Source: Escherichia virus TH20
DNA: 40,001 nt
Direction: 5' to 3' (one strand)
Sequence record: MT446394.1
Each line of letters begins with the position of its first letter. Positions within the stretch are counted from its first letter, which is position 1. Below the pieces are notes generated by a model. That model was not told the DNA's origin and did not search any database. It was given only the letters and a program-made list of their open reading frames with translations. Below are positions 5,265 to 38,538 of the stretch, one piece after another. The translations under genes and the position numbers were made by a program.

Positions 5265-5287
5265 CTTCCCTATAGTGATAGTTAAGT
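5265..5287 (-). promoter_or_regulatory. Phage-RNAP promoter (phiOR position, downstream of large terminase): ACTTAACTATCACTATAGGGAAG
   Basis: Near-consensus 23-mer on minus strand, +1 G at 5270. Confidence 0.7.
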
Positions 5288-5381
5288 CCAAACTCCTTGT
5301 AAAACAGTAGGTTAGACTGGTAGCAACTATAGGTTACTAACTGCGTATTCATGCAGCTTTCACCTATAGTTATTCATTCAG

Positions 5382-7145
5382 CTAGTGGAACGTAACGTAT
5401 GACCCTAGTCCAAGCTCGTCGTCCGTATCGTGAGTTACCCGGACCCCATTGTCCCAGAACTCAGTGTGGATGGACTCGAAGCCTTTCCGTGGGTTCTCCA
5501 TCTGTTCCTCCAGCCACTCCTCAGTGACTTCACGTTCGCCTTTGTTGGCATCCTTAGCCATAGACTCAACGAAGAACTGTACACCGATAGCTAGCGCATC
5601 AAGTCGGTCATCGTGTGCCAAGGCCCCACGTTCACGAGAGATACGTGTCATCTGGTAGAAGAGAGAGTAGATAGGGTTACGAACACCATCCTTATCAGAG
5701 GCCGACTGGTAGTCTTGGACGATAGCAGCAGCGTTAACGATAAGTCGGTGAGACCCCATGATAGGCTCCAGAACGTCACAGATGCGGAGTTCTTTCTGAC
5801 CCTTACTCTTCACTTCAGTTACAGCCGCAGGATGGATACGGGCCGCTACAGGCTTGAATAGCTCAAGGTACATACCATCACCGAAGTTACCCTCAATGAC
5901 GTATTCGTTGACCTTCCACTTACGACCAATCTTAGCCAGCGCTTCAAGCGTAGAGTCTTCATAACCACCCCGCATACCACCAACTTCCATAGCGAAGATG
6001 TAGCCGTTGAGCTGGTACAGTACCGCATAGCCAGTTTCATCCTTACCACGACCACTAGGGTCAATGACCAGAATCTTCTGGGTGTACGAACTGAAGGCAG
6101 AACCTACAGTCTGATACGTGTGGTATGAGTCACCCATGAGTCCAACGTTAGGAACGTCCTCACGCTTGTTCTGAGGGTTTGGCAGCCATTGGTAGACCAT
6201 TGGGCTGGACGCTGGGTCCAAGTCGGCTACGATAAGGTCACGGAGCTTCAGAGGGTACTTCTCAGCATCACTTAGGTTCGGGTTAAGCATGAACTGTAGA
6301 GCGAAGCCGGCTTTACCATAGGACAGCTCACGTTCCTTCAGGTCAGTATCGTCGAATCGAACTTCATCGGTCGGACGCCAGTAGAAGGCCTCAGGGTCCT
6401 CTTCAAGCTCTGCCTGAAGCATAGGAGCCAGACGGTCTCCGTAAGACTGCCAGTCCTTCCTGTCGCGTGGATAACGAGCAGGCCAGATAGTAGTGGTGTA
6501 CCCACGGCCTTCCAACTCACGATACAAGGTCATCTCGTTCTGAGGAGTACCCAGATAGATGATCGTACCTCCCGGCTTCAGGATAGCGTCGAACTCTTTC
6601 ACAAGCTCTGACAGACGGTCTCGTGCGGCCTGAGTCGCTGAGTTGTTTGGAACCTCCACGTCGTCGGCAATCAGGATGTCGGCACGACTACCAGTCAACT
6701 GACCAGTGATACCAACGGACTTAACCGAAGGTGAGTGGTCTGGCTTGGCTGGTCCAACATCGAAGCTGATAACCGCATCTCGCTGCCCCTGCTTAGGTTT
6801 GAGCTCCTGAAGCTGAGGCATGAGGTCGATGATTCGCTTGATGAAGATGGAGTTAGCATCGGCTCGTTCCTTTGAGGCCGACACAATCATGAACTTCAAG
6901 TCTGGGTTGTTCCATAACTTCCAGACCACGAAGGCACACGTAATGAAGGACTTCCCGATACCACGGAACGCTTGTAGGATGAAGCGCCTGTTGCCCCCAG
7001 ACGATAGTTTCTTCGCCATGTCAATCTGACAGCGAGTCGGGACTGGGAGTGACAGAGCTTTCCACAGGACGAACAGGAAGAACACGAAGTCTGCCTTCAT
7101 ACGGGCAGTCATTAGCGCCTGACGCGCCACTAAATCTTTACTCAA
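5382..7145 (-). CDS. Terminase large subunit (T7 gp19-like), 587 aa
   Basis: Co-linear with T7 gp19 ([39 protein letters not shown]); start is TTG at 7145 with AAGGAGG 6 nt upstream, overlapping spanin stop. Confidence 0.97.
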
Positions 7146-7591
7146 TGCGTCACCTCCTTATCTTGCTGCAAGGCTCTCACAGTGTCCTGAAGGGCCTTAA
7201 TCCACTTGTCTCCTTTCACTCCGATGACGATAAGACGTTTAGCATCTCGTTCGTCAAGTTCGGCGTAACCATCAATGACGCATCGACCGTCACTTTGCGT
7301 GGTTCCACTCGTTGGTTTGACTCGGATGCGCAGCCGCTTATTGTCAGACTGAAGGTCAGCAATAATCCTATCAGTGCTGCCTTCCAGCGAGGACATTTCG
7401 TCCTGAAACCGTTTGGACACTTTGTTGACTTCATCTTGGACAGCAAGCCTTGTATCTTCCGATGCCTTAAGATTCGAGGTGTATTCTTCATTGACCTTAG
7501 CCTCCCACTTATTGTTAGCGGTGTGGTAGCCACCAGCAAACATCACTGCTGCAAGTAACCACGGAGCCGCTCTCTTTAAAAATTCGAGCAT
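7142..7591 (-). CDS. i-spanin (T7 gp18.5 / Rz-like), 149 aa
   Basis: N-terminal TM segment [14 protein letters not shown], coiled-coil body; position between small and large terminase; GGGAGGG upstream of ATG 7591. Confidence 0.85.
7216..7491 (-). CDS. o-spanin lipoprotein (T7 gp18.7 / Rz1-like) embedded out of frame in the i-spanin gene
   Basis: [25 protein letters not shown] with lipobox LTISGC aligns to remembered T7 gp18.7; start could be ATG 7491 or 7434. Confidence 0.6.
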   Translation of the reverse strand: MKNTPRILRHRKIQGLLSKMKSTKCPNGFRTKCPRWKAALIGLLLTFSLTISGCASESNQRVEPRKVTVDASLMVTPNLTNEMLNVLSSSE

Positions 7592-7644
7592 AGTTGCCCT
7601 CCCGGTTTATCAGATTTCACGTAGAGTCTCCTCCACTAGTTAGT

Positions 7645-7690
7645 GTTAACCATAAAGGCCACTACATATAGTAATGACCTTGAGTCTAAC
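7645..7690 (-). promoter_or_regulatory. Conserved stem-loop, candidate RNase III processing site (R18.5 position)
   Basis: One of three copies of AATCATAAAGGCCAC...ATGACCTTGAGTCTA; the stem needs a G-U pair on the minus-sense RNA but is a C-A mismatch on the plus strand. Confidence 0.4.
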
Positions 7691-7692
7691 AC

Positions 7693-7956
7693 TTATTGAA
7701 CACCATACCCGGTGTCATTATCTTCCGTAGATGAGAGCACCTTATCGTACTCTGCGTTCAGGGCCTCCATATCAGCCAGAGTCTTCTCGTCGACAGACAC
7801 CTTGCTTAGCACGAAGTTGTGACGAGCCAGTAGCTTCTCAATGGCGTTGTAAAGCTGAGGTGAACGCTTAGTGTCATCCCGCAGGTCTTGCAGCATGAGT
7901 CGAGCACGTTCAGTATCTAGCATCAAGAGGAACTTCTCTAAGTCCATCTGCGTCAT
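7693..7956 (-). CDS. Terminase small subunit (T7 gp18-like), 87 aa
   Basis: Size and position; ATG 7956 overlaps holin stop (ATGA). Confidence 0.8.
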   Translation of the reverse strand: MTQMDLEKFLLMLDTERARLMLQDLRDDTKRSPQLYNAIEKLLARHNFVLSKVSVDEKTLADMEALNAEYDKVLSSTEDNDTGYGVQ

Positions 7957-8147
7957 GTTTTACCCCCTCCTTTAATCGTTTTGTAGACTAGCACACCAAT
8001 CTGGACAACGGTGTACGCGATAGCTGCAACGTAGAACCATTCGTTAAGTGTGAGTCCGAAGAAGAACCGACTGGCACCATCAGCCGCAGCGGTCCCGACT
8101 ATAGGAGAGGCTTTAAGGACCTCATTCTTGAAGTCTAACTCAATCAT
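7953..8147 (-). CDS. Class II holin (T7 gp17.5-like), 64 aa
   Basis: GLTLNEWFYVAAIAYTVVQIG matches T7 gp17.5; GGAGGT upstream. Confidence 0.85.
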   Translation of the reverse strand: MIELDFKNEVLKASPIVGTAAADGASRFFFGLTLNEWFYVAAIAYTVVQIGVLVYKTIKGGGKT

Positions 8148-8255
8148 AAAACCTCCAGTTTAAAGCGGGTCGTCCGTGACCCAAAGTTGTTACCATAAGT
8201 TGGTCAGCGTGTAGTTAGCCTCTACCCCCTTCCACACACGCCGAAGAGGTTTTTT

Positions 8256-10805
8256 TTAAATGGTTGCTATTTGCCACCGTCGATCATAGTAATGGGAGAA
8301 TCCGCTATACGTCAAAGTCATATGAACAATAGCCATTGATATTGATGCTGACGGGCAGCTGACACGGATGAATGTTTGTCCGCCTCTAACTAATTTCTGC
8401 ACATTAAACCCTGACAGGCTTTTATCCCCGGCATCAAGATTACTCCATAAAGCCCCCGATGCTACGTTGGACTCGCTACTACCAGACATACTAAACATCA
8501 AACGCCCTCCAGCCTCTCTACCACCAAGTCCATTTTTGTTTACGGGTATGATTGACATTTCCCCGGCAAGGAAGCACGCACCATACCTTGATTCTTCACC
8601 GACAGTGGTTAGCAGAATGTCTACCGCTCTGTTCCACGGAAGTATGAATGTCGCCTGCTCGGTTTTTACTTCATTAAAATACGCGTCAGCTGTCACATTT
8701 ATTGACGAAAGAGTTACGCCGTCATAGGAGTTACGCCCTTCTAGTGGTGCATGGCCATATACCCTATTTCCTGCTCTGACGCTTCGGATTCTGGTGTCTG
8801 CTAATCTTGAGGCGTCAGCAGCTTTAACGAATCTGAAATTATCTCCTAAAACCAGAGAGTTACCGTAAGCATTAACGTTTCCTGACGTATTTTTGTTTAT
8901 TAAGGCAATATGGTAATCCGCCTTAACATAACCGGAGTCCAGCACAATACTTCCATTCGGCATTCTTGCCTCGCTTGTCGGCATTTCAATGAACCGAGTG
9001 ACACCAGTGTTCATTGAACTTTGAATCCAACATGACAATCCCTTAAGGGTGAACTTAAACTGGTCATCTGTTTCTGCATAATCAGAGAAATCAATACCCA
9101 CAGTGCCGTTTATGCCCTCGATACCCATGCCGTCTATTGTTACGGACCGCAACTGCCCACCTACACGATGTGGTCGTATACAACCATCAGCGGCGATATT
9201 TGACGCAGTTACATACATGACAGGGTATCCACCAGCTACCGGTTCGTACGTACTTCTGTCTATGGAATAACCCCAGAGAAAGCCATCGTCGCAGTGGTGC
9301 GCCCATATAGAATTAATGTTGGTGCTGGTATTTCCACTAAGAGCAATGCCATACTTGCAATCGTACATATAGATGTTTTCTATTGTACTGACGAAAGTAA
9401 GCGCCGGTAGCGCGAATTTATAATGATAGAACTCAACATTACGAATCGTGCACAGTTTACCACCACCACCCGATAATTCGGACCCACTTATCATCAACGG
9501 GCATCCAACATAATCTGCGTCAGCATTTCTGAAAGCAATGTTTTCAACAGAAAGGCTATGGCCCCACGAGGTACTTACGAACCCACCAGTTGTCGATGTG
9601 TATATAATGCTTTTACGGGGAGAGTCACCGATAAGGCTAAGCATTACCCCATCCCATCTATACGCGCTAATGTCAATCTGTGTGCTGCCCATATAGATTG
9701 GCTGTTCGATTAATAAAGGAATATTGTGCGCAATACTTGCGGTATACGCAGCCAGCATCGCGGCCCCGTCGTTATGGGTTCCGGAAAGGTTGGCAGCCCC
9801 CATGCTTGGCGCTTTAGGATATGGAGTACCCTGAATGGTGCTGCCGACGATATATGGAGCATCCATCCATGCGCCAAACATTTTAGGAGTAATTCCCCGA
9901 ACGTTTGATAAGTCCCTTTTCCAGCGCTTACCTCCACTAGTAATTATAACAACGCCATTATCATCATTAGTTGTGGAATCTGCTAAGTCCGCATAGAACC
10001 ACCCACCACCAGAATCACCAGACTCATTTGGTGCAATTGATGTTGTATGTTTTTCTACAAAAATGCGCTGGCCATCAACATCAGGTTCAATAGTTCTTAA
10101 TGTTGATATATCATCGCATTTGCCGATTAACTTAAATCCATCGCTTTTATTTAATTGACTCCTTAATGAAGCATCACCTACACTAACCCACGCACCTACT
10201 CCAATCCCACCGGAAGTTTCAGGAGTTGAACCAGCAGGAACGTTCTTTGGAAGAGTACCATCCCAGCGGTAATAATCACCATCCTCTTCCCATAGCAGGA
10301 CCGTGTTCCATGTTGTAACGTTGAAGCCTTTCTCGAAGGAGCGACTGGTAATATAGCCAATTCGACCAGCTTCCTTGATACTCGCAGCTATTCCTCGTGC
10401 TTCGTCCTCGCTATCCTTAGCGTTGCTAGCAGAGCTACCAGCAGCAGCGGCATATTCCTTCGCTAAGTCAACCGTTTGGTCTCGACCTTCTTCTGCAATA
10501 TGGATAGCCTGAAGCTCTGCATTGGTCAGGTCACTAGCTGTCAACACTGAGCCATTCCTGAAGTCTACCACTAAGTCAGTTCCAGTCTGACGGTGAATAC
10601 GAACGATGTCGAAACCTGATTGGTCAACCAGCATCTCAATCATCGTTGGATTAAGGAATCGGTAATCTCGACCAGCTTCCAGTACACGGTTCAGGGCAGG
10701 GTTAGAGCTATTCACCAGCGTAACAACAACAAACGTTCTGGCTAGGTAGTCGAACTCAATCCTGTACTGAGTGTTTCCTGAAGGGAATTGTGTAATCGTG
10801 GACAT
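8256..10805 (-). CDS. Tailspike: T7 gp17-like N-terminal anchor fused to a depolymerase-like beta-helix body, 849 aa
   Basis: N-terminus FDYLARTFVVVTL...VDFRNGSVLTASDL resembles T7 gp17 1-150; remainder is Gly/Ser/Thr/Asn-rich as in pectate-lyase-fold capsule depolymerases; AAGGAGG upstream. Confidence 0.9.
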   Translation of the reverse strand: MSTITQFPSGNTQYRIEFDYLARTFVVVTLVNSSNPALNRVLEAGRDYRFLNPTMIEMLVDQSGFDIVRIHRQTGTDLVVDFRNGSVLTASDLTNAELQAIHIAEEGRDQTVDLAKEYAAAAGSSASNAKDSEDEARGIAASIKEAGRIGYITSRSFEKGFNVTTWNTVLLWEEDGDYYRWDGTLPKNVPAGSTPETSGGIGVGAWVSVGDASLRSQLNKSDGFKLIGKCDDISTLRTIEPDVDGQRIFVEKHTTSIAPNESGDSGGGWFYADLADSTTNDDNGVVIITSGGKRWKRDLSNVRGITPKMFGAWMDAPYIVGSTIQGTPYPKAPSMGAANLSGTHNDGAAMLAAYTASIAHNIPLLIEQPIYMGSTQIDISAYRWDGVMLSLIGDSPRKSIIYTSTTGGFVSTSWGHSLSVENIAFRNADADYVGCPLMISGSELSGGGGKLCTIRNVEFYHYKFALPALTFVSTIENIYMYDCKYGIALSGNTSTNINSIWAHHCDDGFLWGYSIDRSTYEPVAGGYPVMYVTASNIAADGCIRPHRVGGQLRSVTIDGMGIEGINGTVGIDFSDYAETDDQFKFTLKGLSCWIQSSMNTGVTRFIEMPTSEARMPNGSIVLDSGYVKADYHIALINKNTSGNVNAYGNSLVLGDNFRFVKAADASRLADTRIRSVRAGNRVYGHAPLEGRNSYDGVTLSSINVTADAYFNEVKTEQATFILPWNRAVDILLTTVGEESRYGACFLAGEMSIIPVNKNGLGGREAGGRLMFSMSGSSESNVASGALWSNLDAGDKSLSGFNVQKLVRGGQTFIRVSCPSASISMAIVHMTLTYSGFSHYYDRRWQIATI

Positions 10806-10851
10806 TATGCCTCCTTTGTGATTTAAATGGAGGCCTATGGTAGCGCCTCCC

Positions 10852-10874
10852 GTTTCCTATAGTGATAGTTTAGT
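10852..10874 (-). promoter_or_regulatory. Phage-RNAP promoter upstream of tailspike gene (phi17 position): ACTAAACTATCACTATAGGAAAC
   Basis: 23-mer overlaps gene 16 stop; followed in the leader by hairpin GGAGGC-N10-GCCTCC (10831-10852) and the RBS. Confidence 0.7.
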
Positions 10875-14757: not shown

Positions 14758-14761
14758 TATG

Positions 14762-17044: not shown

Positions 17045-17055
17045 TAGTCCTCCTC

Positions 17056-18037: not shown

Positions 18038-18039
18038 CT

Positions 18040-18495: not shown

Positions 18496-18514
18496 AAAGT
18501 CTCCTTATAACCTT

Positions 18515-18564
18515 AAGGGCCTATAGTCCCTATAGTGATAGTTAAGGTAAATCTATAGGCCCTT
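18515..18564 (-). promoter_or_regulatory. Perfect 12-bp inverted repeat (AAGGGCCTATAG / CTATAGGCCCTT) enclosing the phi13 promoter; candidate RNase III site
   Basis: Arms at 18515-18526 and 18553-18564, 26-nt loop; sits between tail tube B stop and gene 13. Confidence 0.45.
18525..18547 (-). promoter_or_regulatory. Phage-RNAP promoter (phi13 position): CCTTAACTATCACTATAGGGACT
   Basis: Near-consensus 23-mer, +1 G at 18530. Confidence 0.7.
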
Positions 18565-21747: not shown

Positions 21748-21787
21748 AAAAAAAAAACCCCTCAAGCACCCGAAGGCACCCAAGGGG
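21748..21787 (-). terminator. Tphi-like intrinsic/RNAP terminator after the capsid gene
   Basis: Minus-sense CCCCTTGGGTGCC-TTCG-GGTGCTTGAGGGG with G-U pairs followed by T10; same position and style as T7 Tphi. Confidence 0.7.
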
Positions 21788-21793
21788 TTTAAA

Positions 21794-22084
21794 TTAGTTT
21801 GTGAACGAAACGTTGAATGACCTAACGGTAGACCCGTCATATCCAACAGTTACAAGACCTGTCACAGCATCGGTGGCCTTGAAGTAGAGACTTGAAGTTC
21901 TACGAGAGTAGCTCACACCATCCGGCATGGTTACATCCAGCAGAGACCAGTCGGTCACATCTGCCAGCTCAGGGAAGTCCACCTTAATACTGACACCAAC
22001 TGAGGACTCCAAGGTTTCCAAGGTAGGACCCTCAGTAGAGAGAGTCCTGAAGGTCATTAACCCGCTGCTGCTGGACTGAAAACC
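21794..22084 (-). CDS. Capsid 10B-type C-terminal extension, reached by -1 frameshift at GGTTTTC (22084-22078), or a separately translated 87-aa ORF
   Basis: -1 frame is open from the heptamer near the 10A end through ORF 21794..22057; ATG at 22057 overlaps 10A stop (TAATG). Confidence 0.5.
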   Translation of the reverse strand, partial: GFQSSSSGLMTFRTLSTEGPTLETLESSVGVSIKVDFPELADVTDWSLLDVTMPDGVSYSRRTSSLYFKATDAVTGLVTVGYDGSTVRSFNVSFTN

Positions 22085-23208: not shown

Positions 23209-23231
23209 TCTCCCTATAGTGATAGTTTAGT
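23209..23231 (-). promoter_or_regulatory. Phage-RNAP promoter upstream of capsid gene (phi10 position): ACTAAACTATCACTATAGGGAGA
   Basis: Best match to consensus including GGGAGA start; +1 G at 23214. Confidence 0.8.
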
Positions 23232-24214: not shown

Positions 24215-24237
24215 TGTTCCTATAGTGATAGTTTAGG
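24215..24237 (-). promoter_or_regulatory. Phage-RNAP promoter (phi9 position): CCTAAACTATCACTATAGGAACA
   Basis: 23-mer overlapping portal stop, +1 G at 24220. Confidence 0.7.
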
Positions 24238-25801: not shown

Positions 25802-25812
25802 TCGTCACCTCC

Positions 25813-26458: not shown

Positions 26459-26462
26459 TGTC

Positions 26463-26687: not shown

Positions 26688-26701
26688 AGTCCCTCCTACA
26701 G

Positions 26702-26974
26702 TTAATCGAACTGAACGGTATCTTTCAGCTCACGACGCATAGCAATCGCAGAGTCGAGAGTGTCAGAGCAATACTGGAGACCCTTGATAAACCCGGCAAT
26801 GAACGCATCGCTGTAGCCCTGCTGCTTGAGGAGACTGATAGCTCCAGTCTTCTCAGCGTAGCTTGCGTTGAACAGTACGTGCATGAACTGGATGGCAGAC
26901 TGGGAGATGTTCGGGACATCAAGTCTTTCTTCCTGTAACTGCTTAACAACGTTTTCAATAGCATTAATCGCCAT
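26702..26974 (-). CDS. Hypothetical protein at the gene 6.5 position, 90 aa
   Basis: First ORF after the phi6.5-type promoter; AGAGGAGA upstream. Confidence 0.5.
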   Translation of the reverse strand: MAINAIENVVKQLQEERLDVPNISQSAIQFMHVLFNASYAEKTGAISLLKQQGYSDAFIAGFIKGLQYCSDTLDSAIAMRRELKDTVQFD

Positions 26975-27035
26975 CTTGAATCTCCTCTTTAAGTTAAGAC
27001 TAAAGTCTATCTTATAGTCATATCTTAGGTCCTAA

Positions 27036-27058
27036 AGTCCCTATAGTGATAGTTTAGT
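27036..27058 (-). promoter_or_regulatory. Phage-RNAP promoter (phi6.5 position): ACTAAACTATCACTATAGGGACT
   Basis: Near-consensus 23-mer, +1 G at 27041. Confidence 0.7.
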
Positions 27059-27184
27059 ATTTCACCTATGGATGACTGTTGGATTGATAGGATATGACTA
27101 TCGGTTAGACTCAGTGTTTAGGGCGGTTGTTCGACCCGAACCACTTGTACATGCAGTAAAGGGCCAGAAGTCCGGCCCAGTAAA

Positions 27185-28051: not shown

Positions 28052-28257
28052 AGACAGCCTCCGTGTTGGTTCAGGAACTTGGTGCCAGCAGCGGTAATCT
28101 CCCACGCACCGTTGTTACGCCCGTCCATAGACAAGCAGCTAAGATGTCCACGACTCGCAGCCTCAGCCACAAGTGCAGCGTTGTTGCGCACATAGTTGGA
28201 CTGGAAGGTCTTCGGGCAGGACTTAAGGGCCGCAAGGACCCGTAAGTATTCACTCAT
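28048..28257 (-). CDS. T7 gp5.7-like protein, 69 aa
   Basis: LKSCPKTFQSNYVRNNAALVAEAASRGH...GAWEITA matches remembered T7 gp5.7 nearly residue for residue. Confidence 0.8.
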   Translation of the reverse strand: MSEYLRVLAALKSCPKTFQSNYVRNNAALVAEAASRGHLSCLSMDGRNNGAWEITAAGTKFLNQHGGCL

Positions 28258-28538
28258 TGCTTGACCTCGAATCGCAGGTTGGATACTCCGAACTTGCCAT
28301 CATCAAAGGCGTCTACCAGCTCCTCCTTGATGACCTTCTTGGCGGCAATCTCAAGGGCAGACTCAGGGCCTGACTCGATTGCTGCTTTGACCAGAGCCAA
28401 CTGAAGTCCATCCAGCTTCTCACCCTCAGCGTAGGCTTTAGTCATCTCAGCCAGTTGGCGACACATGGTCTCTTCTTCTTTTGAGTTGACAACCATCTTC
28501 AGGTCGAAACTTACACGAATACGTTTAGTAATAGCCAT
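28254..28538 (-). CDS. T7 gp5.5-like protein, 94 aa
   Basis: Position and remembered gp5.5-like pattern (MA.TKR..V.FD.KM, GEK.DG); ATG overlaps upstream stop. Confidence 0.65.
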   Translation of the reverse strand: MAITKRIRVSFDLKMVVNSKEEETMCRQLAEMTKAYAEGEKLDGLQLALVKAAIESGPESALEIAAKKVIKEELVDAFDDGKFGVSNLRFEVKQ

Positions 28539-28726
28539 TAGCTTTCTCCTTGGGATTCAATGTGATTGGTCTTTCCACACAGTCTGCACTGAGTTACTTT
28601 GGGCTTGCCATCCTGCGTGCAGTAGACAAGTACCCAATCTGGATGTTTGCACCGCGACTGATGTAGCTCTTCACGCCTGCGTGTTTCTTCAGCGAACTCT
28701 TCGTATGCGCTGTCATAATGACCCAT
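28538..28726 (-). CDS. Hypothetical small protein with Cys/His-rich zinc-ribbon-like motif, 62 aa
   Basis: SRCKHPDW...CTQDG...QCRLCGK; ATG 28726 with AAGGAG upstream, overlapping HNH stop. Confidence 0.45.
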   Translation of the reverse strand: MGHYDSAYEEFAEETRRREELHQSRCKHPDWVLVYCTQDGKPKVTQCRLCGKTNHIESQGES

Positions 28727-28992
28727 TAGTGACACTCCTTCTTAACAAGTTTGCGCTCGCGGTTCGTCTTAATGACGTGTTCGCGCTTTGGAATACACTG
28801 TAGGTGCTCTATGTTGCAGCACCCACGGTTCAAGCACAAATGGTCTATCTCATAGCCATCTGGTATAGGCCCACGCTTCTGCTTCCACACCCATCGGTGG
28901 AACATGAAGGCGAACTTGTTGCCCTTCCTGTAGCTTCCCATGGGTGTGGAAGCGTAGGGTCTGGGTTCGAGGGTCAATGACACTCTTTCCAC
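28726..28992 (-). CDS. HNH endonuclease, free-standing, after the DNA polymerase gene
   Basis: GYEIDHLCLNRGCCNIEHLQCIPKREH; start uncertain (GTG 28992 inside DNAP end, or ATG 28941). Confidence 0.7.
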   Translation of the reverse strand: MERVSLTLEPRPYASTPMGSYRKGNKFAFMFHRWVWKQKRGPIPDGYEIDHLCLNRGCCNIEHLQCIPKREHVIKTNRERKLVKKECH

Positions 28993-31145
28993 GTTGGTCC
29001 AATCTTACCCTCCGTATCAAGTTCACACTTGAAGTTATAGAAGCGTCCGACCTCACGCATCGCCTCTTGAGCAATACGGACGACATCTTCTGCTATCTCC
29101 TGAGTACGACACGCTATCTGCAATTCATCGTGAATCCAAGCCATTAGCGCAAAGTCTCCGTCCCATCCGTTACCGTAACCAGCCTCTTCAAGTTTCTTCT
29201 CAGTAAGTACCATCCAGTGCTTACAGACTACCGCACCATCACCCTGAAGTAATGCGTTCAGTGCTGAGTGTGGAGACCGTATGTGGATACGGCGACCGTC
29301 AAGTCCACGCAACCAACGGCGTTTCCACTTAACGATGTTCTCTCCGTCCACCCACTTAGAGTCTGATATTAACGTATTACTCACAGCTTCCCTGAGGTCC
29401 TTGATGGCTGGTGTGCCCTCAATGAATTTCTTCATGAGAGCTGAACCTTCCTTCTTACCACCGCCGACTATCAGTCCAATCTTAGCGGCCCCTGCACCAT
29501 ACAGGAACGCATAGATGAACGTCTTAGCGTTGTTACGGAAAGCATCATGGTCGTGGTTCGACTTATCGCGTGGGACGTTAGGTGCTAACCCAGCGTTTAC
29601 TGCGTTGGCCCAGTGGATGTCACCTTCGACCACAGTCTTCGCATATGCACCACCATCAAACGGAGCCGCTCGGTTCCCCAGACAACGAAGCTCAAGACCT
29701 GAGGCATCCACACCTACTTGAATCCAAGGGTCTGGCTTACCGTCCTTCTTGTTCCACGCTGCACCGAAAGCACCACGGCAAGTCTCACCATACGGAGCAC
29801 CGTTAGCAGGGACCTGAGCCATGTTTGGTGAACTATGAGTCGCACGTCCGGTTACTGCCCCGCATGGGTTGATTGAACCGTGCATACGTCCGTCTGGACC
29901 TACAAGTTTCAACCATGCGTTCTTACCTTCAGCAGCCTGCCCGATTCTCTTCTGGACTACCAGATACTCACGGACCAGCTCTACGCAAGCCTGAGCCTCT
30001 GCGTCTGGTAACTTAACGTGTTCTAACGTCTCGTCATCGACTACAGGTTTCCCAGTGTCAGTGAAGTCCACAGGCTCCCATCCACGCTCTATCAGGACTT
30101 TCGCTAAGTGGTCGCCGCTTCCCGGATTAAACTCAACGTAAGTGATGGGCGTGAATGGTGCCCCCTCCATCGTGTCTCGTGAGTCGAACTCGCAAGGCTC
30201 CAGACCTAAGCGTTGTGCTTTGTTCTTCGGTTTCTTAAAGATGCCACCGACCTTAGGATACACGACTCGCGGATACTTCGGAAGGTCCTTACCTGTCCGT
30301 GGATGCCTGAAGAACTCCTTGCCTCCCTTTGGTGCATACCAGCTACCGAAAGTCGAGCGCAGCTTGTCCAGCAACTCCGCACGTTTGACAGTGAGTTCAC
30401 GATATAAGCCTTCGACCATCTCGGTGTTCATCGGATAGCCGTTACGTTCCATCTTCGCACAGGTCCACGCAGCATCATGTTCCAGACGCAACGCATAAAT
30501 CTGTTCGAAAGCGAACTGTTCAGACTGGAAGTAATACTTGTCAGTCAGGAACTTCTTGAACAACGCCAGTGTGACCACAACGTCTTGAACGTTATAGTCC
30601 AGCATCTCCTGAGATGGGAACAACCATTCGTCCCCAGCCTTATATTCGATACCCTCGGCCTTGCACTTGGCAACGTAATCATGTTTGTACTCACCCTTCA
30701 TCTCACCGAGACGATAACCCCAAGCCTCAAGAGACTGACGTCCCATCATCTTAGGTGGCAGACGACCCGCTTTCACCGCGCCCATGTCTGAGAACTTAAT
30801 GTTTGGATACATCAAGCGGCCCAGCACCAAGGTATCAATCATCTTGTGTTTCGGGAAGTTAAAACGTTTCCCAAAGTACAGACGCTTCAGCTTGTCTATA
30901 GCCGGGACGTCATAGTTGATACCATTATGGAAGACAAGCATACCATCAGGTGATGCGGCAATCTCTTCCACCTTCTGCACATACTCTTTGAAGCCACCGA
31001 CGATACCGACCATCGGAGCTACCCCATACTTAAGGGTCTCATTCGACTCGGCATTAATCAGGACCCCACAGTGAAACTGGGACACGGTGTCAAGGAGACC
31101 GTTGGTCTCGATGTCCGAACCCCAAATATCCTTAAGGTCAAACAT
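28974..31145 (-). CDS. DNA polymerase (T7 gp5-like), 723 aa
   Basis: Co-linear with T7 gp5 end to end; real start ATG 31145 (GGAGGA 6 nt upstream); track start 31181 is GTG inside the stem-loop. Confidence 0.97.
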   Translation of the reverse strand: MFDLKDIWGSDIETNGLLDTVSQFHCGVLINAESNETLKYGVAPMVGIVGGFKEYVQKVEEIAASPDGMLVFHNGINYDVPAIDKLKRLYFGKRFNFPKHKMIDTLVLGRLMYPNIKFSDMGAVKAGRLPPKMMGRQSLEAWGYRLGEMKGEYKHDYVAKCKAEGIEYKAGDEWLFPSQEMLDYNVQDVVVTLALFKKFLTDKYYFQSEQFAFEQIYALRLEHDAAWTCAKMERNGYPMNTEMVEGLYRELTVKRAELLDKLRSTFGSWYAPKGGKEFFRHPRTGKDLPKYPRVVYPKVGGIFKKPKNKAQRLGLEPCEFDSRDTMEGAPFTPITYVEFNPGSGDHLAKVLIERGWEPVDFTDTGKPVVDDETLEHVKLPDAEAQACVELVREYLVVQKRIGQAAEGKNAWLKLVGPDGRMHGSINPCGAVTGRATHSSPNMAQVPANGAPYGETCRGAFGAAWNKKDGKPDPWIQVGVDASGLELRCLGNRAAPFDGGAYAKTVVEGDIHWANAVNAGLAPNVPRDKSNHDHDAFRNNAKTFIYAFLYGAGAAKIGLIVGGGKKEGSALMKKFIEGTPAIKDLREAVSNTLISDSKWVDGENIVKWKRRWLRGLDGRRIHIRSPHSALNALLQGDGAVVCKHWMVLTEKKLEEAGYGNGWDGDFALMAWIHDELQIACRTQEIAEDVVRIAQEAMREVGRFYNFKCELDTEGKIGPTWKECH

Positions 31146-31160
31146 GGTTAATCCTCCGTT

Positions 31161-31205
31161 TAGTCTAATCATAAAGGCCACTCGATGTGAATGACCTTGA
31201 GTCTA
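31161..31205 (-). promoter_or_regulatory. Conserved stem-loop, candidate RNase III site upstream of DNA polymerase gene
   Basis: Second copy of AATCATAAAGGCCAC...ATGACCTTGAGTCTA. Confidence 0.4.
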
Positions 31206-31208
31206 GAC

Positions 31209-33088
<1,880 letters not shown>

Positions 33089-33136
33089 TCACTCCTTAAT
33101 CACAAATGCGAACAAAGGGACAGGACTCGCGGGTCC

Positions 33137-33159
33137 CATCCCTAAGGTGATAGTTTAGG
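33137..33159 (-). promoter_or_regulatory. Phage-promoter-like site with altered melting region (CACCTTAGGG instead of CACTATAGGG) upstream of primase-helicase gene
   Basis: Upstream half CCTAAACTATCAC is consensus; -4/-3 changed; function uncertain. Confidence 0.35.
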
Positions 33160-33370
33160 CTTTGAAGAACTGAGACAACTGGTCAGCTTTGGTGTCAGCC
33201 TGACGTGCCTTCATGCCAGCTTCCAGTGACGCGATGGTCAGCTTGTCAGCCAGAGCAGCAGCATCAGCCGCACCGTCAGCAGTCTTCTCTGCTACCTTTC
33301 GTTCCATAACCGCAGCACGACGATAACCACGCACCACCAGACGACCAAGAAATTCGATAAGTTTAATCAT
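33155..33370 (-). CDS. Hypothetical small Ala-rich protein, 71 aa
   Basis: ATG 33370 with AAGGAGA upstream; pattern MxKLIxxLGxLxVRxY...QLSxFF resembles a small T7 protein I cannot place reliably. Confidence 0.5.
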   Translation of the reverse strand: MIKLIEFLGRLVVRGYRRAAVMERKVAEKTADGAADAAALADKLTIASLEAGMKARQADTKADQLSQFFKA

Positions 33371-33393
33371 TTAGTGTTCTCCTTTAGAGTTTA

Positions 33394-33852
33394 TTAACCG
33401 CGGTCGGAAGTGACTAGTCCGTTGGTAGACAGCCAGCGCTGTAAGTCGAAACTTGGACACGCCTTTGGTGCTACGTCATGATGTGCTTTGATTTCTGCCT
33501 GAGGATACAGGACCTTCAGGTCAGCCAGCTTGTTGCGCAGGGAGTTCATCTGGGCTGGAGTGAAGTTAGCTTCAAACTTGCCCTTAGCGTCAATTCCACC
33601 TACAAGGCAGACGCCTACGGACCAGGAGTTCCAATCCTTAACGTGTGACCCTACGACATTGACCGGGCGACCCTCTTCCACAGTACCATCGCGCTTGATG
33701 ATAAAGTGGTAGCCTACGTCCAGCCATCCTTGCTGCTTGTGCCACATGCGGATGGTCTCTACCCCAATGTCCATCTCTGGCTTGGTAGCCGAACAGTGAA
33801 CGAAGATAGCGTCAGTTCGGGACCGTGGTTTGAACTGAACCTTACTTACCAT
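33394..33852 (-). CDS. N-acetylmuramoyl-L-alanine amidase / T7 lysozyme (gp3.5-like), 152 aa
   Basis: TDAIFVHCSATKP, HKQQGWLDVGYHFIIKRDGTVE, HHDVAPKACPSFDL, LVTSDRG match T7 gp3.5. Confidence 0.95.
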   Translation of the reverse strand: MVSKVQFKPRSRTDAIFVHCSATKPEMDIGVETIRMWHKQQGWLDVGYHFIIKRDGTVEEGRPVNVVGSHVKDWNSWSVGVCLVGGIDAKGKFEANFTPAQMNSLRNKLADLKVLYPQAEIKAHHDVAPKACPSFDLQRWLSTNGLVTSDRG

Positions 33853-34151
33853 TGTACACCACCAGCTCTACTACGACCAGATTCAGATGTGACAGGAGGG
33901 ACGCTTGATGCTGGCAGGACTTGAGGTTTATCCTCTACAATTTCCTCAAGATATTCATTTAAAACCCATGCTCCCCACATTCCGTCAGGCTGCGTGTTAG
34001 GACCCGCGCTACCGTGCTTGTAGTAGCCACGCTCGGAGGATTCTACCAGAGTAATGCCAAGCCGGGTTGATGGGTCTTTCACACATTTCGTAACGATAGT
34101 ACTTTTAGGCCACCCGTGGCGGCTAACTTTAAGTTTATATTTCTGAGTCAT
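33846..34151 (-). CDS. Hypothetical protein, 101 aa, inserted between endonuclease I and lysozyme genes
   Basis: ATG 34151 overlaps endonuclease I stop (ATGA), AAGGAG upstream; no T7 counterpart recalled; C-terminal half low complexity. Confidence 0.5.
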   Translation of the reverse strand: MTQKYKLKVSRHGWPKSTIVTKCVKDPSTRLGITLVESSERGYYKHGSAGPNTQPDGMWGAWVLNEYLEEIVEDKPQVLPASSVPPVTSESGRSRAGGVQW

Positions 34152-34603
34152 CACTTAACTCCTTTCTTCTTTGGAATGAGTATACCCGAAGGCAGACGTA
34201 CAGTCGCCTCTCGAAGCCACTCAACCGGGATGAACTTATCGGCATACTTATAGCCGTTCTTTTCGCACCATGCGCCATACGTGGTCGGAGACCCTTTGTA
34301 TAGCTTGGAGCGGGAACTTGAGAACACGAACCGGATGTCTAACTCTGGGTGCTGTTCTCGTACCAGAAGATGCTTCTTACGGTCATCACTATCGAAGATA
34401 CCTTTGGTCTCCACGATGATACCGTTAGGAAGGATAAAGTCCGGCGTGTAGAAGTGGTCCGAAGCAGGAACAACGTACCCAATCTTATATGCTTCATACT
34501 CTGCCTTGACTCCGTTCTTCTCGAGCCACTCTTGGTTCTTTGCTTCCAGTCCAGAGCGGTAAGTCCCGACTGCGTGTCCTCGTGATGCTGACCACTTAGC
34601 CAT
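34151..34603 (-). CDS. Endonuclease I, Holliday junction resolvase (T7 gp3-like), 150 aa
   Basis: FRSGLE, YTPDFxLPNGIxVETKG, SDDRKKHLLxREQHPELDIRxVFSSSRxKLYKGSPT match T7 gp3; real start ATG 34603 (GGAG upstream); track start is TTG. Confidence 0.9.
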   Translation of the reverse strand: MAKWSASRGHAVGTYRSGLEAKNQEWLEKNGVKAEYEAYKIGYVVPASDHFYTPDFILPNGIIVETKGIFDSDDRKKHLLVREQHPELDIRFVFSSSRSKLYKGSPTTYGAWCEKNGYKYADKFIPVEWLREATVRLPSGILIPKKKGVK

Positions 34604-35036
34604 GTTTGATTCTCCATATAATTGCTTGCGGAGTAACACCAAACATCTTGGCTAAATCTACAGGCTTCATATCAGACTTCAGGATAAACTCTACGTCTTC
34701 CTCGGTCAGCTTAGTCTTCTGGTTAGCTTCTCCTTTGAACACTGGCGGTTTCGAATGACGACCCCGCTTCACGCAATCCTGCATGTTGTCTGTCTGAGTC
34801 CCGACTTCAAGATGTTCCGGGTTACAGCAGCAAGGGTTGTCACATTTATGGCGAACTAGGAGGCCATCAGGTATTGGACCACAGTGCTCTCTATAAGAGA
34901 CTCTATGCGCGTAGTCCTGTTTCTGGTTGCCTATGGATATTCTACCATAACCTTGTTTGTACCGGGAGCGTTGCCACTCCCAGCAGCCAGAAGGAGAAAC
35001 TATAGAGTAAGCCTCCAGTTTCTCTTTCAGTGTCAT
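34596..35036 (-). CDS. HNH homing-endonuclease-like protein, free-standing, between SSB and endonuclease I genes
   Basis: HRVSYREHCGPIPDGLLVRHKCDNPCCCNPEHLEVGTQTDN; ATG overlaps SSB stop (TAATG). Confidence 0.8.
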   Translation of the reverse strand: MTLKEKLEAYSIVSPSGCWEWQRSRYKQGYGRISIGNQKQDYAHRVSYREHCGPIPDGLLVRHKCDNPCCCNPEHLEVGTQTDNMQDCVKRGRHSKPPVFKGEANQKTKLTEEDVEFILKSDMKPVDLAKMFGVTPQAIIWRIKHG

Positions 35037-35734
35037 TAGAAGTTGTAGTCACCGGCGTTGTTCTGACCATCGTCCTGACCATCATCGTCAGACCCGAAGT
35101 CATCACCGCCGAAGTCACCATCGGTTGACGCTTTGTAGCCAGTACCGAGGTCTTCATCATCACCCCAGCCACCATCGCCACCAGCACCATCACCTTTCCA
35201 CTCCTTCAGCTCTACCAGAAGGCAGGACTCAAGCTGGAGCTTAACGCTTGCACCAGTCGCAGCGTTCCACTTAAACGGCAGGACTTTAAACTTGACCTTC
35301 AGCTTAGACCCAGCGCCAATATTCGGGACGTCACGGATGAGTTTAGCATCAGTGTCGTAGAACCGTAATACGATAGGCTCGGACTTGCCGTCTTTCAGGT
35401 AAGACGCAAAGCATTTAAACTTAAGGGTAACAGTACCGTCACCATTCTCAATCCACGGCATATCGCCTTCACGCGGCTCGATAGGCTTCTTGCCACGCTG
35501 AACCTGAGGTGGGTTCTTCTCGTGGTCTGCGAGTGCTTTCGCATACGCATCGTCGTGAATCTTCTGTAAGACATCAATCATCTTACGGACCTTCGGGTCA
35601 TCCAGACTGAAAGTCAGGTTAACCTTATGCTCACCACGCTCATTAAACTTGGTGTCTGCTTTGTTCAGCCATGCATAAGGCTCAACGATACCAGCTACCG
35701 GAGTGGTGAAAGTCTTCAGTTGCTCTTTAGCCAT
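35036..35734 (-). CDS. Single-stranded DNA-binding protein (T7 gp2.5-like), 232 aa
   Basis: PPxVxRGKKPxxPxEGDMP, NGDGT.T.KFKC.AS, GASVKLQLES..LVEL and acidic tail ending in F match T7 gp2.5. Confidence 0.9.
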   Translation of the reverse strand: MAKEQLKTFTTPVAGIVEPYAWLNKADTKFNERGEHKVNLTFSLDDPKVRKMIDVLQKIHDDAYAKALADHEKNPPQVQRGKKPIEPREGDMPWIENGDGTVTLKFKCFASYLKDGKSEPIVLRFYDTDAKLIRDVPNIGAGSKLKVKFKVLPFKWNAATGASVKLQLESCLLVELKEWKGDGAGGDGGWGDDEDLGTGYKASTDGDFGGDDFGSDDDGQDDGQNNAGDYNF

Positions 35735-35773
35735 CGGTGTAAATCTCCTAATTTAAAGTTACGAACTGGACGT

Positions 35774-35796
35774 CTGTCCTACAGTGATAGTTTAGG
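35774..35796 (-). promoter_or_regulatory. Phage-promoter-like site with CACTGTAGGA core (phi2.5 position)
   Basis: Upstream half consensus; -3 A to G; overlaps stop of gp2-like gene. Confidence 0.5.
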
Positions 35797-35950
35797 TCTC
35801 AGGACGAATCCGTCCGACCACAAACCCAGCGTCCTCATACTCTTGGGACTTCAGGGTAGCCTCTTCAAGAGACTTTGCGTACACCGGAACATCGAAGGAC
35901 TGAATGCGCCCCTCAAGCTCCACGATGTATTTCTTCTCAACCTCAGTCAT
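35792..35950 (-). CDS. Host RNA polymerase inhibitor (T7 Gp2-like), 52 aa
   Basis: Hand translation; [14 protein letters not shown]...[13 protein letters not shown] parallels T7 Gp2 SFEVPIYAETLDEA...YVPAGFEVTRVRP; AAGGAG upstream; below track cutoff. Confidence 0.75.
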
Positions 35951-36028
35951 AGACCGCGCTCCTTCCATTGGTTGTATAACGTAATGTAGTCCGGGTTGAG
36001 AGTCTTCTCATACATCTCCCGGCACCAC

Positions 36029-36367
36029 TCACTCGGCAGCATAGCACTTACCTTTATGCAAGTCGAACAGCTTCTGATAGAAGGATGCTTTGTTCAGGTC
36101 CTTCTCCATAGTAGCCAGTTCGGACTTCTTACCAGCCCGGAGTCGATACTTCAGGACGTTGCCAAGGCAGAACCCACGGAACTCACTCACAGTCATTGAC
36201 CGTGCAATAATCTCAATGGATTCCACGCTATCAAAGACCTGATAGTGGGACGGCTTGCGGACGTCATCAATTTCTTGTAGTTTGTTACCTACAAGTTTAC
36301 CAACGTGCGGGAATCGGTCGTCACCATTACATGCTTCACAGTATGTGGTGCTATCACAGTATGTCAT
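36029..36367 (-). CDS. DUF3310-type protein, possibly T7 gp1.7-like nucleotide kinase family, 112 aa
   Basis: PSHYQ...SIEII...F.LGNVLKYRLRAGKK...EKDLNKA.FY pattern; N-terminal Cys cluster; family assignment from memory. Confidence 0.45.
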   Translation of the reverse strand: MTYCDSTTYCEACNGDDRFPHVGKLVGNKLQEIDDVRKPSHYQVFDSVESIEIIARSMTVSEFRGFCLGNVLKYRLRAGKKSELATMEKDLNKASFYQKLFDLHKGKCYAAE

Positions 36368-36621
36368 CAGAGCGCCTCCTTAATTACCAGAAGTGCCAGC
36401 TTAATGCGAGGCCATTTTGTAATGACCACAGGCACATCAACTTGTTCTTTATCCATAGCCTTCAGCATAGACTTGCGGGTGACTAGCGCATGAACTGCTG
36501 GAGACAGAGCCACTGTCTTACCAAAGCGGGGTAATGGTTGATTAGCTTTATGGAAGCTGAATGGGCTATGCGACAGGTGGAAGCTTCGAGTAAATCGGTT
36601 GAACATTAAGTTTTTAGACAT
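36367..36621 (-). CDS. Hypothetical protein (gene 1.6 region), 84 aa
   Basis: ATG 36621 with AAGGAGA upstream, first ORF after a phage promoter. Confidence 0.45.
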   Translation of the reverse strand: MSKNLMFNRFTRSFHLSHSPFSFHKANQPLPRFGKTVALSPAVHALVTRKSMLKAMDKEQVDVPVVITKWPRIKLALLVIKEAL

Positions 36622-36647
36622 AAGGTTTCTCCTTTGGTCGGTTAGGG

Positions 36648-36670
36648 TTGTCCTATAGTGATAGCTTAGG
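36648..36670 (-). promoter_or_regulatory. Phage-RNAP promoter (phi1.5/1.6 position): CCTAAGCTATCACTATAGGACAA
   Basis: One mismatch upstream of core; +1 G at 36653. Confidence 0.6.
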
Positions 36671-36729
36671 GTCTAGCTGGTGGCCCAGACGCAAAGAAAC
36701 CCAGCAGTCCTAAGACCACTGGGTTGACG

Positions 36730-36909
36730 TTAACGCATCTTAAAGTTGTTCACCTTAGCAGCCTTACGGTAGCGATGACTCATGGTTGATATTGTCTCTT
36801 CATCGAAGTAGGGCTTGGCCCACTTCTTGAGTTTACGATACCACAGCTCGCCATTTACCACAGCGTAGAGTTGACCACTTGCTATGTTGATATAAAGTTG
36901 TGTACTCAT
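36730..36909 (-). CDS. Hypothetical small protein after ligase, 59 aa
   Basis: ATG 36909 overlaps ligase stop (ATGA); track start 36948 is GTG inside ligase. Confidence 0.4.
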   Translation of the reverse strand: MSTQLYINIASGQLYAVVNGELWYRKLKKWAKPYFDEETISTMSHRYRKAAKVNNFKMR

Positions 36910-37988
36910 GACTTCACCGTTGGGTTGTCTTCGGTTCCACGCCAGCACTTGAAGCTGGGGTGACGAAGGGAGCCATCAGGGAACCGCTCCATGAAGAGGA
37001 CTTCACACTGCCAGCCTTCGTATGGGTTATCGAAGCAAGGTTCGTTACCACCAATGCCGTACGGCGCAAAGATGCCAACCGCAGCAAGCGTGTCCTCCTT
37101 GACCTTAGCCGTAAACTCGTCCTTCTGTTCTTCAGTCAGACCGCAGGCGTTGACCACCATGCCATCCTCCAGTAGAACCTCAAAGCCGATGACCTTACCT
37201 TCGTTAGCCTTACCCTGAGTCCCCCACACGAGGCCACACACGGTCCCGTCGATTGTCTCCTCAGGCTTCATTTTCCACATGCCTGACTTCTTGCCACGCT
37301 TCCACTTACCCAGCGGGTCTTTGACTATCAGACCCTCGTGTCCTTCCAGACGCTTCTCTTCGTACAGGGAGTTGAGCGACTCAAGGTCATAGACCGTGTG
37401 TGACTCAGACAGAACCCAGTCGATTTCCGGGAAGTATTTCTGGAGGAGAGGGACGATAGCTTCGGCCTTCAGGCGTGTGACGCTATGGATAGGACCTTCT
37501 GCTTTCGGGTCGGCTATGGTCGTCATGTCGACGACACCGTAGACCACAACCTGAAGTCGGGACCGGGCGACCCAGAACGGGACCTTCTTGCCACGGCCCT
37601 GATAGCATTCAGCGAACGCCTCGTTGTTAGGCTTCAGCCACTTCGTTCGGATGAGACCTGAGGAGGTGTTGAAGTCCACACCTTTGACCATTACCTCGCC
37701 ATCAATCATCAAGCCCACGCCTTCGTAGCCAGCTTGACGAAGGAACCATCGCCAGTCAGCTTGGGTCCACGCATTCCCTAACTCAGAGTTCATCCACTCC
37801 AAGGCTGGAAGAGGTTTAGACTCACGGCTCAGCCAATAGGTCTCACCTTCACGCAGGACCGGGAGGTTCAACCGGACACCATCGTACTTCACTTCAGCTT
37901 CCAGAGACCCGGCTGCTTCCAGTGCCTTCTTAACACCAGACTCAGAGTAATCTACAGCGCGGTGCGGGTTGGTTTTGATAGTTGTCAT
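36906..37988 (-). CDS. ATP-dependent DNA ligase (T7 gp1.3-like), 360 aa
   Basis: IKTNP, adenylation motif KYDGVR, EGLIVKDP, KRGKKSGxWKMKPE, GSLRHPSF match T7 ligase; preferred start ATG 37988 overlapping gp1.2 stop (TAATG). Confidence 0.95.
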   Translation of the reverse strand: MTTIKTNPHRAVDYSESGVKKALEAAGSLEAEVKYDGVRLNLPVLREGETYWLSRESKPLPALEWMNSELGNAWTQADWRWFLRQAGYEGVGLMIDGEVMVKGVDFNTSSGLIRTKWLKPNNEAFAECYQGRGKKVPFWVARSRLQVVVYGVVDMTTIADPKAEGPIHSVTRLKAEAIVPLLQKYFPEIDWVLSESHTVYDLESLNSLYEEKRLEGHEGLIVKDPLGKWKRGKKSGMWKMKPEETIDGTVCGLVWGTQGKANEGKVIGFEVLLEDGMVVNACGLTEEQKDEFTAKVKEDTLAAVGIFAPYGIGGNEPCFDNPYEGWQCEVLFMERFPDGSLRHPSFKCWRGTEDNPTVKS

Positions 37989-38251
37989 TATGCTTTGCTC
38001 CATGTGTCGATATGGTCAGCGAGACCGTTGAGGTAGTCTGTTGCAGTATTATACAGCACGTCTTCATCGTAGTGTGCGAAGGTCTCAAGCGCGAAGATGT
38101 TACCAGCTCGGTCCTCCACCCTGAGTTTCATGCACTCTTGGCACGACACATGGTCTTGAAACTCCTGAGATATAACAGCGAAGTCTAACTGATAAAGCCT
38201 GTTACACGCTGCTTTGAAAGCGTTGAGGTTGCCACTATAAAGTCGGCCCAT
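37988..38251 (-). CDS. dGTP triphosphohydrolase inhibitor (T7 gp1.2-like), 87 aa
   Basis: MGRLYSGNLxAFKAA.N.L.QLD.AVI and HxDEDVL.N..TD.LN match T7 gp1.2. Confidence 0.85.
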   Translation of the reverse strand: MGRLYSGNLNAFKAACNRLYQLDFAVISQEFQDHVSCQECMKLRVEDRAGNIFALETFAHYDEDVLYNTATDYLNGLADHIDTWSKA

Positions 38252-38255
38252 TTGG

Positions 38256-38435
38256 TTATGCTCCTACGAAGTATTTCTCTTGGTTGACCAGAGAGTCTTT
38301 ACCTTCAGCGTTTCGGAAAGCTCCCTTCACGCCACCACCACGTTTAGTCTTGTTCAGCTTGCGGCCCTTAGGAATGTAACCTTCAGTCTGCTGGCGTTCA
38401 CGGATGCGCTCAAAGTTGATAGTGTTCTGATACAT
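38256..38435 (-). CDS. T7 gp1.1-like small basic protein, 59 aa
   Basis: Hand translation; KGRKLNKTKR identical to remembered T7 gp1.1 segment; GGAGA upstream. Confidence 0.6.
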   Translation of the reverse strand: MYQNTINFERIRERQQTEGYIPKGRKLNKTKRGGGVKGAFRNAEGKDSLVNQEKYFVGA

Positions 38436-38475
38436 ATGGCTAAATCTCCAGTAATTTACGTTTAGTAGTAAGGGT

Positions 38476-38520
38476 TAATCATGAAGGCCACGACTTTGAG
38501 TCATGACCTTTAGTCTAATC
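38476..38520 (-). promoter_or_regulatory. Conserved stem-loop, candidate RNase III site (R1.1 position)
   Basis: Third copy of AATCAT(A/G)AAGGCCAC...ATGACCTT(G/T)AGTCTA. Confidence 0.4.
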
Positions 38521-38538
38521 CTATAGTGATAGTTTAGG
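38516..38538 (-). promoter_or_regulatory. Phage-RNAP promoter (phi1.1 position): CCTAAACTATCACTATAGGATTA
   Basis: Near-consensus 23-mer, +1 G at 38521. Confidence 0.7.

Follow-up and report, generated by a model that had tools for sequence, protein, structure and literature searches.

Introduction

A family of eleven 23-mers in the genome of Escherichia virus TH20 (sequence record MT446394.1) has its closest described counterparts in the polymerase/promoter systems of phages K1F and Ro45lw. Temme et al. 2012 grafted the specificity loop of the K1F RNA polymerase (RNAP) into T7 RNAP and combined it with positions -12 to -7 of the K1F-subfamily consensus, which gave an orthogonal pair (PMC3458549). 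The K1F-loop pair was later improved by the change M750R (Segall-Shapiro et al. 2014; PMC4299498), and the native K1F RNAP with its promoter, PK1F, has been used as an orthogonal expression and mutagenesis system (PMC12218169). In a covariation study of 2025, K1F forms its own node in the residue/base network (PMC11880802). Purified Ro45lw RNAP transcribes in vitro from the minimal promoter ACTTAACTATCACTATAGGGA, and the G start was mapped by 5′-end sequencing (PMC12272871). A Kayfunavirus genome paper of 2026 reports the dispersed repeat CTWAACTATCACTATAGG as promoters (PMC13298934).

The whole TH20 stretch that was analyzed is 40,001 nucleotides (nt) long and is termed the window; all coordinates refer to it. 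With a probability of about 95%, the eleven 23-mers are promoters of the phage's own T7-type single-subunit RNAP, and they constitute a position-for-position copy of the K1F set (Kayfunavirus, Studiervirinae).

Bases 1–807 of the window are identical to bases 39195–40001, an overlap of 807 bp. Since the ends are identical, the window represents one entire genome of 39,194 unique bp in circularly permuted form, broken within the RNA polymerase gene. Megablast shows about 93%–94% identity over 82%–96% of each genome half to many Kayfunavirus records and so assigns the window to the K1F-like phages of that genus. The gene order, from tblastn searches with K1F proteins, is T7-type from ocr through gene 19, as in K1F, and all genes are on the minus strand.

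Detection of the promoter family

Exactly eleven 23-mers, spanning positions -17 to +6, are found, every one of them on the minus (coding) strand. The +1 positions are 2391, 5270, 10857, 18530, 23214, 24220, 27041, 33142, 35779, 36653 and 38521. The original prediction had listed eleven sites and all are present at its coordinates, where each number is the plus-strand start of the 23-mer, i.e. +1 minus 5. It had also given CTAAACTATCACTATAGGGA as a shared 20-mer. This is appropriate as a consensus but not as an exact sequence, as it is exact at only two sites (23211 and 27038) and has 1–3 mismatches at eight further sites and four mismatches at 2386. A search with the 20-mer allowing three or fewer mismatches gives 10 places, all on the minus strand; 2386 is missed because of its four mismatches and was confirmed by reading the sequence. 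There are zero matches at this threshold in 100 dinucleotide-preserving shuffles, and thus chance is excluded.

A weight matrix of 23 columns was derived from the eleven sites and used to scan the two strands of the unique genome (39,194 bp). The eleven sites score 31.2–38.2 bits on their own matrix and 23.8–36.9 bits in a leave-one-out comparison. Elsewhere in the genome no score is higher than 13.0 bits (27012, minus strand), and the top score from 200 shuffles is 16.2 bits. The best site on the plus strand, the scan of which had been proposed along with the original prediction, scores 5.1 bits, so there are no equally good matches on that strand. An unsupervised repeat search returns the same family as the largest in the genome.

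The 13.0-bit site was considered as a candidate twelfth promoter but is not counted, as its score is below that of the best shuffle. It is a degenerate promoter-like 23-mer, CCTAAGATATGACTATAAGATAG, at 27007–27029 (minus strand; +1 at 27012), and is situated 29 nt downstream of the promoter at the phi6.5 position. The 23-mer is identical in K1F, which has the same weak twelfth (13-bit) site after phi6.5. It could be a decayed tandem copy.

The eleven sites

The sites have the consensus [A/C]CT[A/T]A-ACTAT-CACTATA-GG[G/A]. Columns -16 to -15, -13, -10 to -5 and -2 to +2 are invariant, and the region from -7 to +2 (core CACTATAGG, eleven copies) is invariant except for three single-site variants; promoters of the T7 group (Studiervirinae) typically have about 10–17 copies of such an element per genome. 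The bases A, C, T, A and T of the block at -12 to -8 are found in 10/11, 10/11, 11/11, 11/11 and 11/11 sites, respectively. Each site is located between genes, with at most a stop codon overlapped, and is about 33–109 nt before the next gene. The predicted promoters are listed below in the order of the T7-type gene map, beginning with the site before gene 1.

2386..2408, minus strand, +1 at 2391: promoter with no T7 position, ACTTAATTATCACTATAGGACTC; 75 nt before gene 1 (RNAP start at 2316)
38516..38538, minus strand, +1 at 38521: promoter at the phi1.1 position, CCTAAACTATCACTATAGGATTA; downstream of gene 1/1.05 and before genes 1.1/1.2
36648..36670, minus strand, +1 at 36653: promoter at the phi1.5/1.6 position, CCTAAGCTATCACTATAGGACAA; after the ligase gene (1.3), 32 nt before gene 1.6
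35774..35796, minus strand, +1 at 35779: promoter at the phi2.5 position, CCTAAACTATCACTGTAGGACAG; 45 nt before gene 2.5
33137..33159, minus strand, +1 at 33142: promoter at the phi4 position, CCTAAACTATCACCTTAGGGATG; variant at -4/-3; 57 nt before the primase/helicase gene 4
27036..27058, minus strand, +1 at 27041: promoter at the phi6.5 position, ACTAAACTATCACTATAGGGACT; after gene 6, 67 nt before gene 6.5
24215..24237, minus strand, +1 at 24220: promoter at the phi9 position, CCTAAACTATCACTATAGGAACA; after the portal gene 8, 103 nt before the scaffold gene 9
23209..23231, minus strand, +1 at 23214: promoter at the phi10 position, ACTAAACTATCACTATAGGGAGA; 108 nt before the capsid gene 10
18525..18547, minus strand, +1 at 18530: promoter at the phi13 position, CCTTAACTATCACTATAGGGACT; after gene 12, 35 nt before gene 13
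10852..10874, minus strand, +1 at 10857: promoter at the phi17 position, ACTAAACTATCACTATAGGAAAC; after gene 16, 52 nt before the tail-spike gene 17
5265..5287, minus strand, +1 at 5270: promoter at the phiOR position, ACTTAACTATCACTATAGGGAAG; 112 nt after the terminase gene 19, about 580 nt before the terminal repeat

The sites had been said to match the T7 positions phi1.1, 1.5/1.6, 2.5, 4, 6.5, 9, 10, 13, 17 and OR. This is the case for ten of them, but site 2386 is at none of the positions listed; it is upstream of gene 1, a placement that follows from the circular permutation of the window.

The K1F genome (DQ111067) also has eleven sites. These display the same consensus, [A/C]CT[A/T]AACTATCACTATAGG[G/A], and occupy the same junctions between genes; the site 75 nt before gene 1 is among them. 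The 23-mers of K1F and the window show three single-base differences, i.e. at -11 of the gene-1 site, at -17 of phi4 and from +3 onward at phiOR.

At four sites the TAA at -15 to -13 is the stop codon of the preceding gene. The genes are 2.0 (35792–35794), the 3.7-like gene (33155–33157), 8 (24233–24235) and 16 (10870–10872). In T7 the TAA at -17 to -15 ends gene 8, one codon further upstream than in the window (end of gene 8 at 21850, start of phi9 at 21865).

Deviations from the consensus are largest in the middle-gene promoters (38521, 36653, 35779 and 33142) and the gene-1 site, which score 31.2–35.5 bits; site 33142 has a leave-one-out score of 23.8 bits. The six promoters from phi6.5 to phiOR are nearer to the consensus, at about 35.5–38.1 bits. 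The deviant middle-gene promoters and the near-consensus later ones mirror the class II and class III promoters of T7. The class III promoters of T7 have a GGGAGA start, as is found at the 23214 site.

The polymerase and its specificity loop

The genome encodes its own T7-type RNAP, a cognate enzyme of 893 amino acids (aa); the reading frame has no internal stop. The gene is divided by the ends of the window.

1..2316, minus strand: gene 1, single-subunit RNAP, codons 1–772; start at 2316, continues at 39194..38829
38829..40001, minus strand: gene 1, C-terminal 391 codons and stop; 39195–40001 duplicates window 1–807

The RNAP is 64% identical to T7 gp1 and 98.6%–99.5% identical to K1F gp1. 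In a five-way alignment of the window, T7, T3, K11 and K1F RNAPs, the motifs around T7 D537, K631 and D812 are invariant. The specificity loop, which corresponds to T7 residues 744–761, is located as follows.

39198..39251, minus strand: specificity loop TTRLNLMFLGSFNLQPTV; the same DNA is also at window 4–57

The loop is identical to that of K1F, while the T7 sequence at this location is QTRLNLMFLGQFRLQPTI. The changes relative to T7 include R756N and Q754S. A comparison of the promoters with the RNAP specificity loop had been suggested earlier; the loop does differ from that of T7 by these changes, which matches the presence of a distinct promoter block. The base-contact positions 746, 748, 756 and 758 are named from the structure of the T7 complex (PMC11880802), and the residues aligned with them are the following.

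Residues 746/748/756/758 in the window and K1F: R-N-N-Q
Residues 746/748/756/758 in T7: R-N-R-Q
Residues 746/748/756/758 in T3: R-D-R-Q
Residues 746/748/756/758 in K11: R-K-N-K

The N-terminal AT-rich recognition loop of the window RNAP is also diverged, which fits the different sequence at -17 to -13.

Ro45lw belongs to the same genus. Its RNAP is 94% identical to that of the window and has the same contact residues, and its loop shows M750L and one further conservative change. The Ro45lw minimal promoter is the same as the phiOR site of the window over -17 to +4. The window has M at loop position 750, and the improvement of the K1F-loop pair by M750R is consistent with this.

Specificity compared with T7, T3 and K11

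The comparison set consisted of the 17 annotated T7 promoters and the annotated T3 and K11 promoters. The block at -12 to -8 is ACTAT in the window versus CGACT in T7, ACCCT in T3 and GGGCA in K11, in agreement with the original prediction that this block is different. The window sites are the same as the T7 promoters over -8 to +2. Over -17 to -9 they differ at all positions but one, -13; the window sequence is [A/C]CTAAACTA and that of T7 is TAATACGAC. The T7 matrix gives the window sites -9 to -38 bits, and for T7 promoters on the window matrix the values are -9 to -26 bits. Neither the window nor the T7 genome contains a good match to the matrix of the other, and the two sets do not overlap. 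The promoters of this isolate may be orthogonal to the T7, T3 and K11 RNAPs; in silico, the cross-matrix scores with T7 are negative.

The likeness to T7 comprises the 23-bp architecture, the -8 to +2 sequence TCACTATAGG, the GG start, the positions on the gene map, the reuse of TAA and the presence of Tphi after gene 10. There are 11 promoters in the window, however, compared with 17 in T7. The T7 promoters phiOL, phi1.3, phi3.8, 4c, 4.3 and 4.7 have no counterpart in the window, which has instead a promoter directly before gene 1. T3 and K11 share the architecture and core with the window but differ at -12 to -8 and in loop residues 748/756/758.

A distinct polymerase-promoter pair had been proposed from the ACTAT block. 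The pair is distinct from those of T7, T3 and K11, but it is not a new one, since the identical loop and the same site positions show it to be the K1F/Kayfunavirus pair. The ACTAT block at -12 to -8 (AACTATCACTATAGG) is also present in K1F, Ro45lw and Sparklingdew. The PK1F of Temme and colleagues reportedly reads TAATAACTATCACTATAGGGAGA. Among the matches listed for the 15-mer AACTATCACTATAGG in IMG/VR, many contigs of about 40 kb have multiple copies, and these are mixed with single chance matches. The matches show only that the motif is common in K1F-sized contigs.

Proposed mechanism

From T7 structural knowledge and the alignment, the specificity loop would read ACTAT at -12 to -8 in the major groove via R746, N748, N756 and Q758 (T7 numbering), and the diverged N-terminal AT-rich recognition loop would read -17 to -13 ([A/C]CT[A/T]A). 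TATA at -4 to -1 would then melt and the RNA would start at the G of GG(G/A). The promoters are predicted to head the middle and late transcription units in T7 order (1.1, 1.6, 2.5, 4, 6.5, 9, 10, 13, 17 and OR), and through the extra site immediately before gene 1 the polymerase would be able to transcribe its own gene. Promoter activity, the G start and orthogonality have been shown by others on close relatives, and the individual sites of TH20 are predicted to be active.

A terminator similar to Tphi, presumably for the phage polymerase, is found after the capsid region.

21755..21790, minus strand: Tphi-like terminator; strong hairpin with a G+C-rich stem of 16 bp and then a run of T, located after the capsid region and before gene 11

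In the T7 record Tphi is between genes 10 and 11, which matches the window, and the hairpin probably closes the phi10 transcription unit as in T7. A simple scan did not find a TE-like early terminator after the ligase gene.

The gene-1 promoter and the left end

The site before gene 1 and the 75-nt leader that follows it vary very little among K1F and 12 IMG/VR contigs of about 39–40 kb. The search pattern for these relatives allowed either base at -11 of the site (window position 2402). All 13 of the 13 relatives have C at this position and only the window has T. In Ro45lw there is also a site before gene 1, with CACTAAAGG in place of CACTATAGG; other promoters are annotated in the Ro45lw record, but this one is not. 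In the T7, T3 and K11 records a phiOL is annotated close to the left end, and directly before gene 1 there is no annotated phage promoter.

Comparison with the K1F ends shows that the terminal repeat is present once (collapsed) in the window, at 4689–4512; the K1F left end corresponds to 4689 and the right end to 4512. In the matrix scan of the genome, the interval from the terminal repeat to the early genes (4689–3823, left end to ocr) has no phage promoter of the phiOL type, and the gene-1 site is therefore the leftmost phage promoter. This region has sigma-70-like sites, e.g. 4164–4135 (TTGACA/18/TAGTAT) and 3852–3825, which are candidate early promoters. The fold of the 75-nt leader, considered with respect to the RNase III site R1 of T7/T3, is no better than that of shuffles (z = -0.34), which lends no support to an R1-like structure.

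Alternative explanations

The resemblance to T7 raises the question of an ordinary T7-specificity promoter set with no separate specificity. The shared sequence at -8 to +2, the 64% identity of the RNAPs and the conservation of R746, N748 and Q758 would be in keeping with this. However the divergence of -17 to -9, the strongly negative cross-matrix scores and the R756N and Q754S changes in the loop make it very improbable, and the orthogonality of K1F and T7 has been published (PMC3458549, PMC12218169). It is equally hard to regard the repeats as a dispersed element that acts not in transcription but, e.g., as a signal for replication or packaging, a hot spot of recombination or a homing target. 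In T7, promoters of the origin and packaging regions also act as signals for replication or maturation. The phi1.1 and phiOR positions correspond to regions of T7 that are related to the origin and to packaging, and nothing else supports a dispersed element. On the other hand, the core CACTATAGG is common to the annotated T7 and K11 promoters, and to those of T3 bar one base; all copies are co-oriented with the genes and are just upstream of gene starts; and the same sequence drives in vitro transcription with its cognate RNAP (PMC12272871). That the family is a promoter set with K1F specificity accounts for these properties. Some points weigh against it, nevertheless. The contact residues are putative, as they were assigned by alignment to T7 RNAP and from published T7 structures, not from a K1F-type complex, and the promoter activity of the single sites in TH20 is likewise predicted. 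Sites 2391 (T at -11) and 33142 (CT at -4/-3) deviate in columns that are normally invariant and may be weak.

The deviation at 2391 leads to a narrower alternative, namely that there are only ten working promoters and that the gene-1 site is decaying or has been deliberately weakened by the -11 C-to-T change. Site 2391 is the lowest-scoring match (31.2 bits; leave-one-out 25.7 bits), and its T at -11, where the relatives uniformly have C, is inside the -12 to -8 block that would be read by the specificity loop. Position -11 is a main discriminator in T7/T3. The lack of an annotated promoter at this place in Ro45lw is also in line with a loss of function, and the -11 change may weaken self-transcription of gene 1, as judged from the sequence. 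The near invariance of the site and its leader across K1F and the 12 metagenomic relatives argues for function, however, and a related site is present before gene 1 in Ro45lw. T7 itself uses promoters that are substituted in the -12 to -8 block, e.g. phiOL and phi3.8. A set of only ten working promoters is thus possible but rather unlikely. A more speculative proposal, which is put forward with considerable doubt, is that the gene-1 promoter is a genus-specific positive-feedback loop on RNAP synthesis, that it may also replace phiOL as the leftmost phage promoter, the hand-over point for genome entry driven by the polymerase, and that the private T at -11 could tune the loop down. The gene-1 promoter may already be described in the original K1F genome paper (Scholl & Merril 2005).

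Other features of the genome

A three-member repeat family forms stable bulged hairpins at 7647–7688, 31166–31205 and 38476–38517 (minus strand), with z = -5.4, -3.1 and -3.8, respectively. The first copy precedes gene 18.5, the second precedes the DNA polymerase gene and the third comes just after the promoter at the phi1.1 position. In position and shape they resemble the RNase III processing sites R18.5, R4.7 and R1.1 of T7.

Apart from the features described above, the K1F genome differs from the window mainly in the tail spike and in some small genes. The tail-spike gene 17 (8256–10805, minus strand) encodes 849 aa, and only the first 223 aa are common with the K1F endosialidase (90% identity). 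Analysis by Pfam shows the Phage_T7_tail and Tail_spike_N families and no further family at the default threshold (E 0.001). The K1 capsule is probably not the target of this phage. At the DNA polymerase (gene 5) position, 28974–31181 (minus strand), there is one unbroken open reading frame of 735 codons. In the K1F record the polymerase coding sequence consists of two joined pieces, with a homing-endonuclease gene between them.

Significance

The K1F-type polymerase/promoter pair is already known, has been tested in the laboratory and is used as a synthetic-biology tool, and there is nothing novel in the pair itself. The phage promoter family was recovered from raw sequence in the original prediction. 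The features that the T7 template does not explain are the gene-1 promoter, the absence of phiOL and the private change at -11, all of which are minor. What the analysis provides for this genome is a complete promoter map, a Tphi-like terminator and the specificity class of the RNAP, with little significance beyond annotation.

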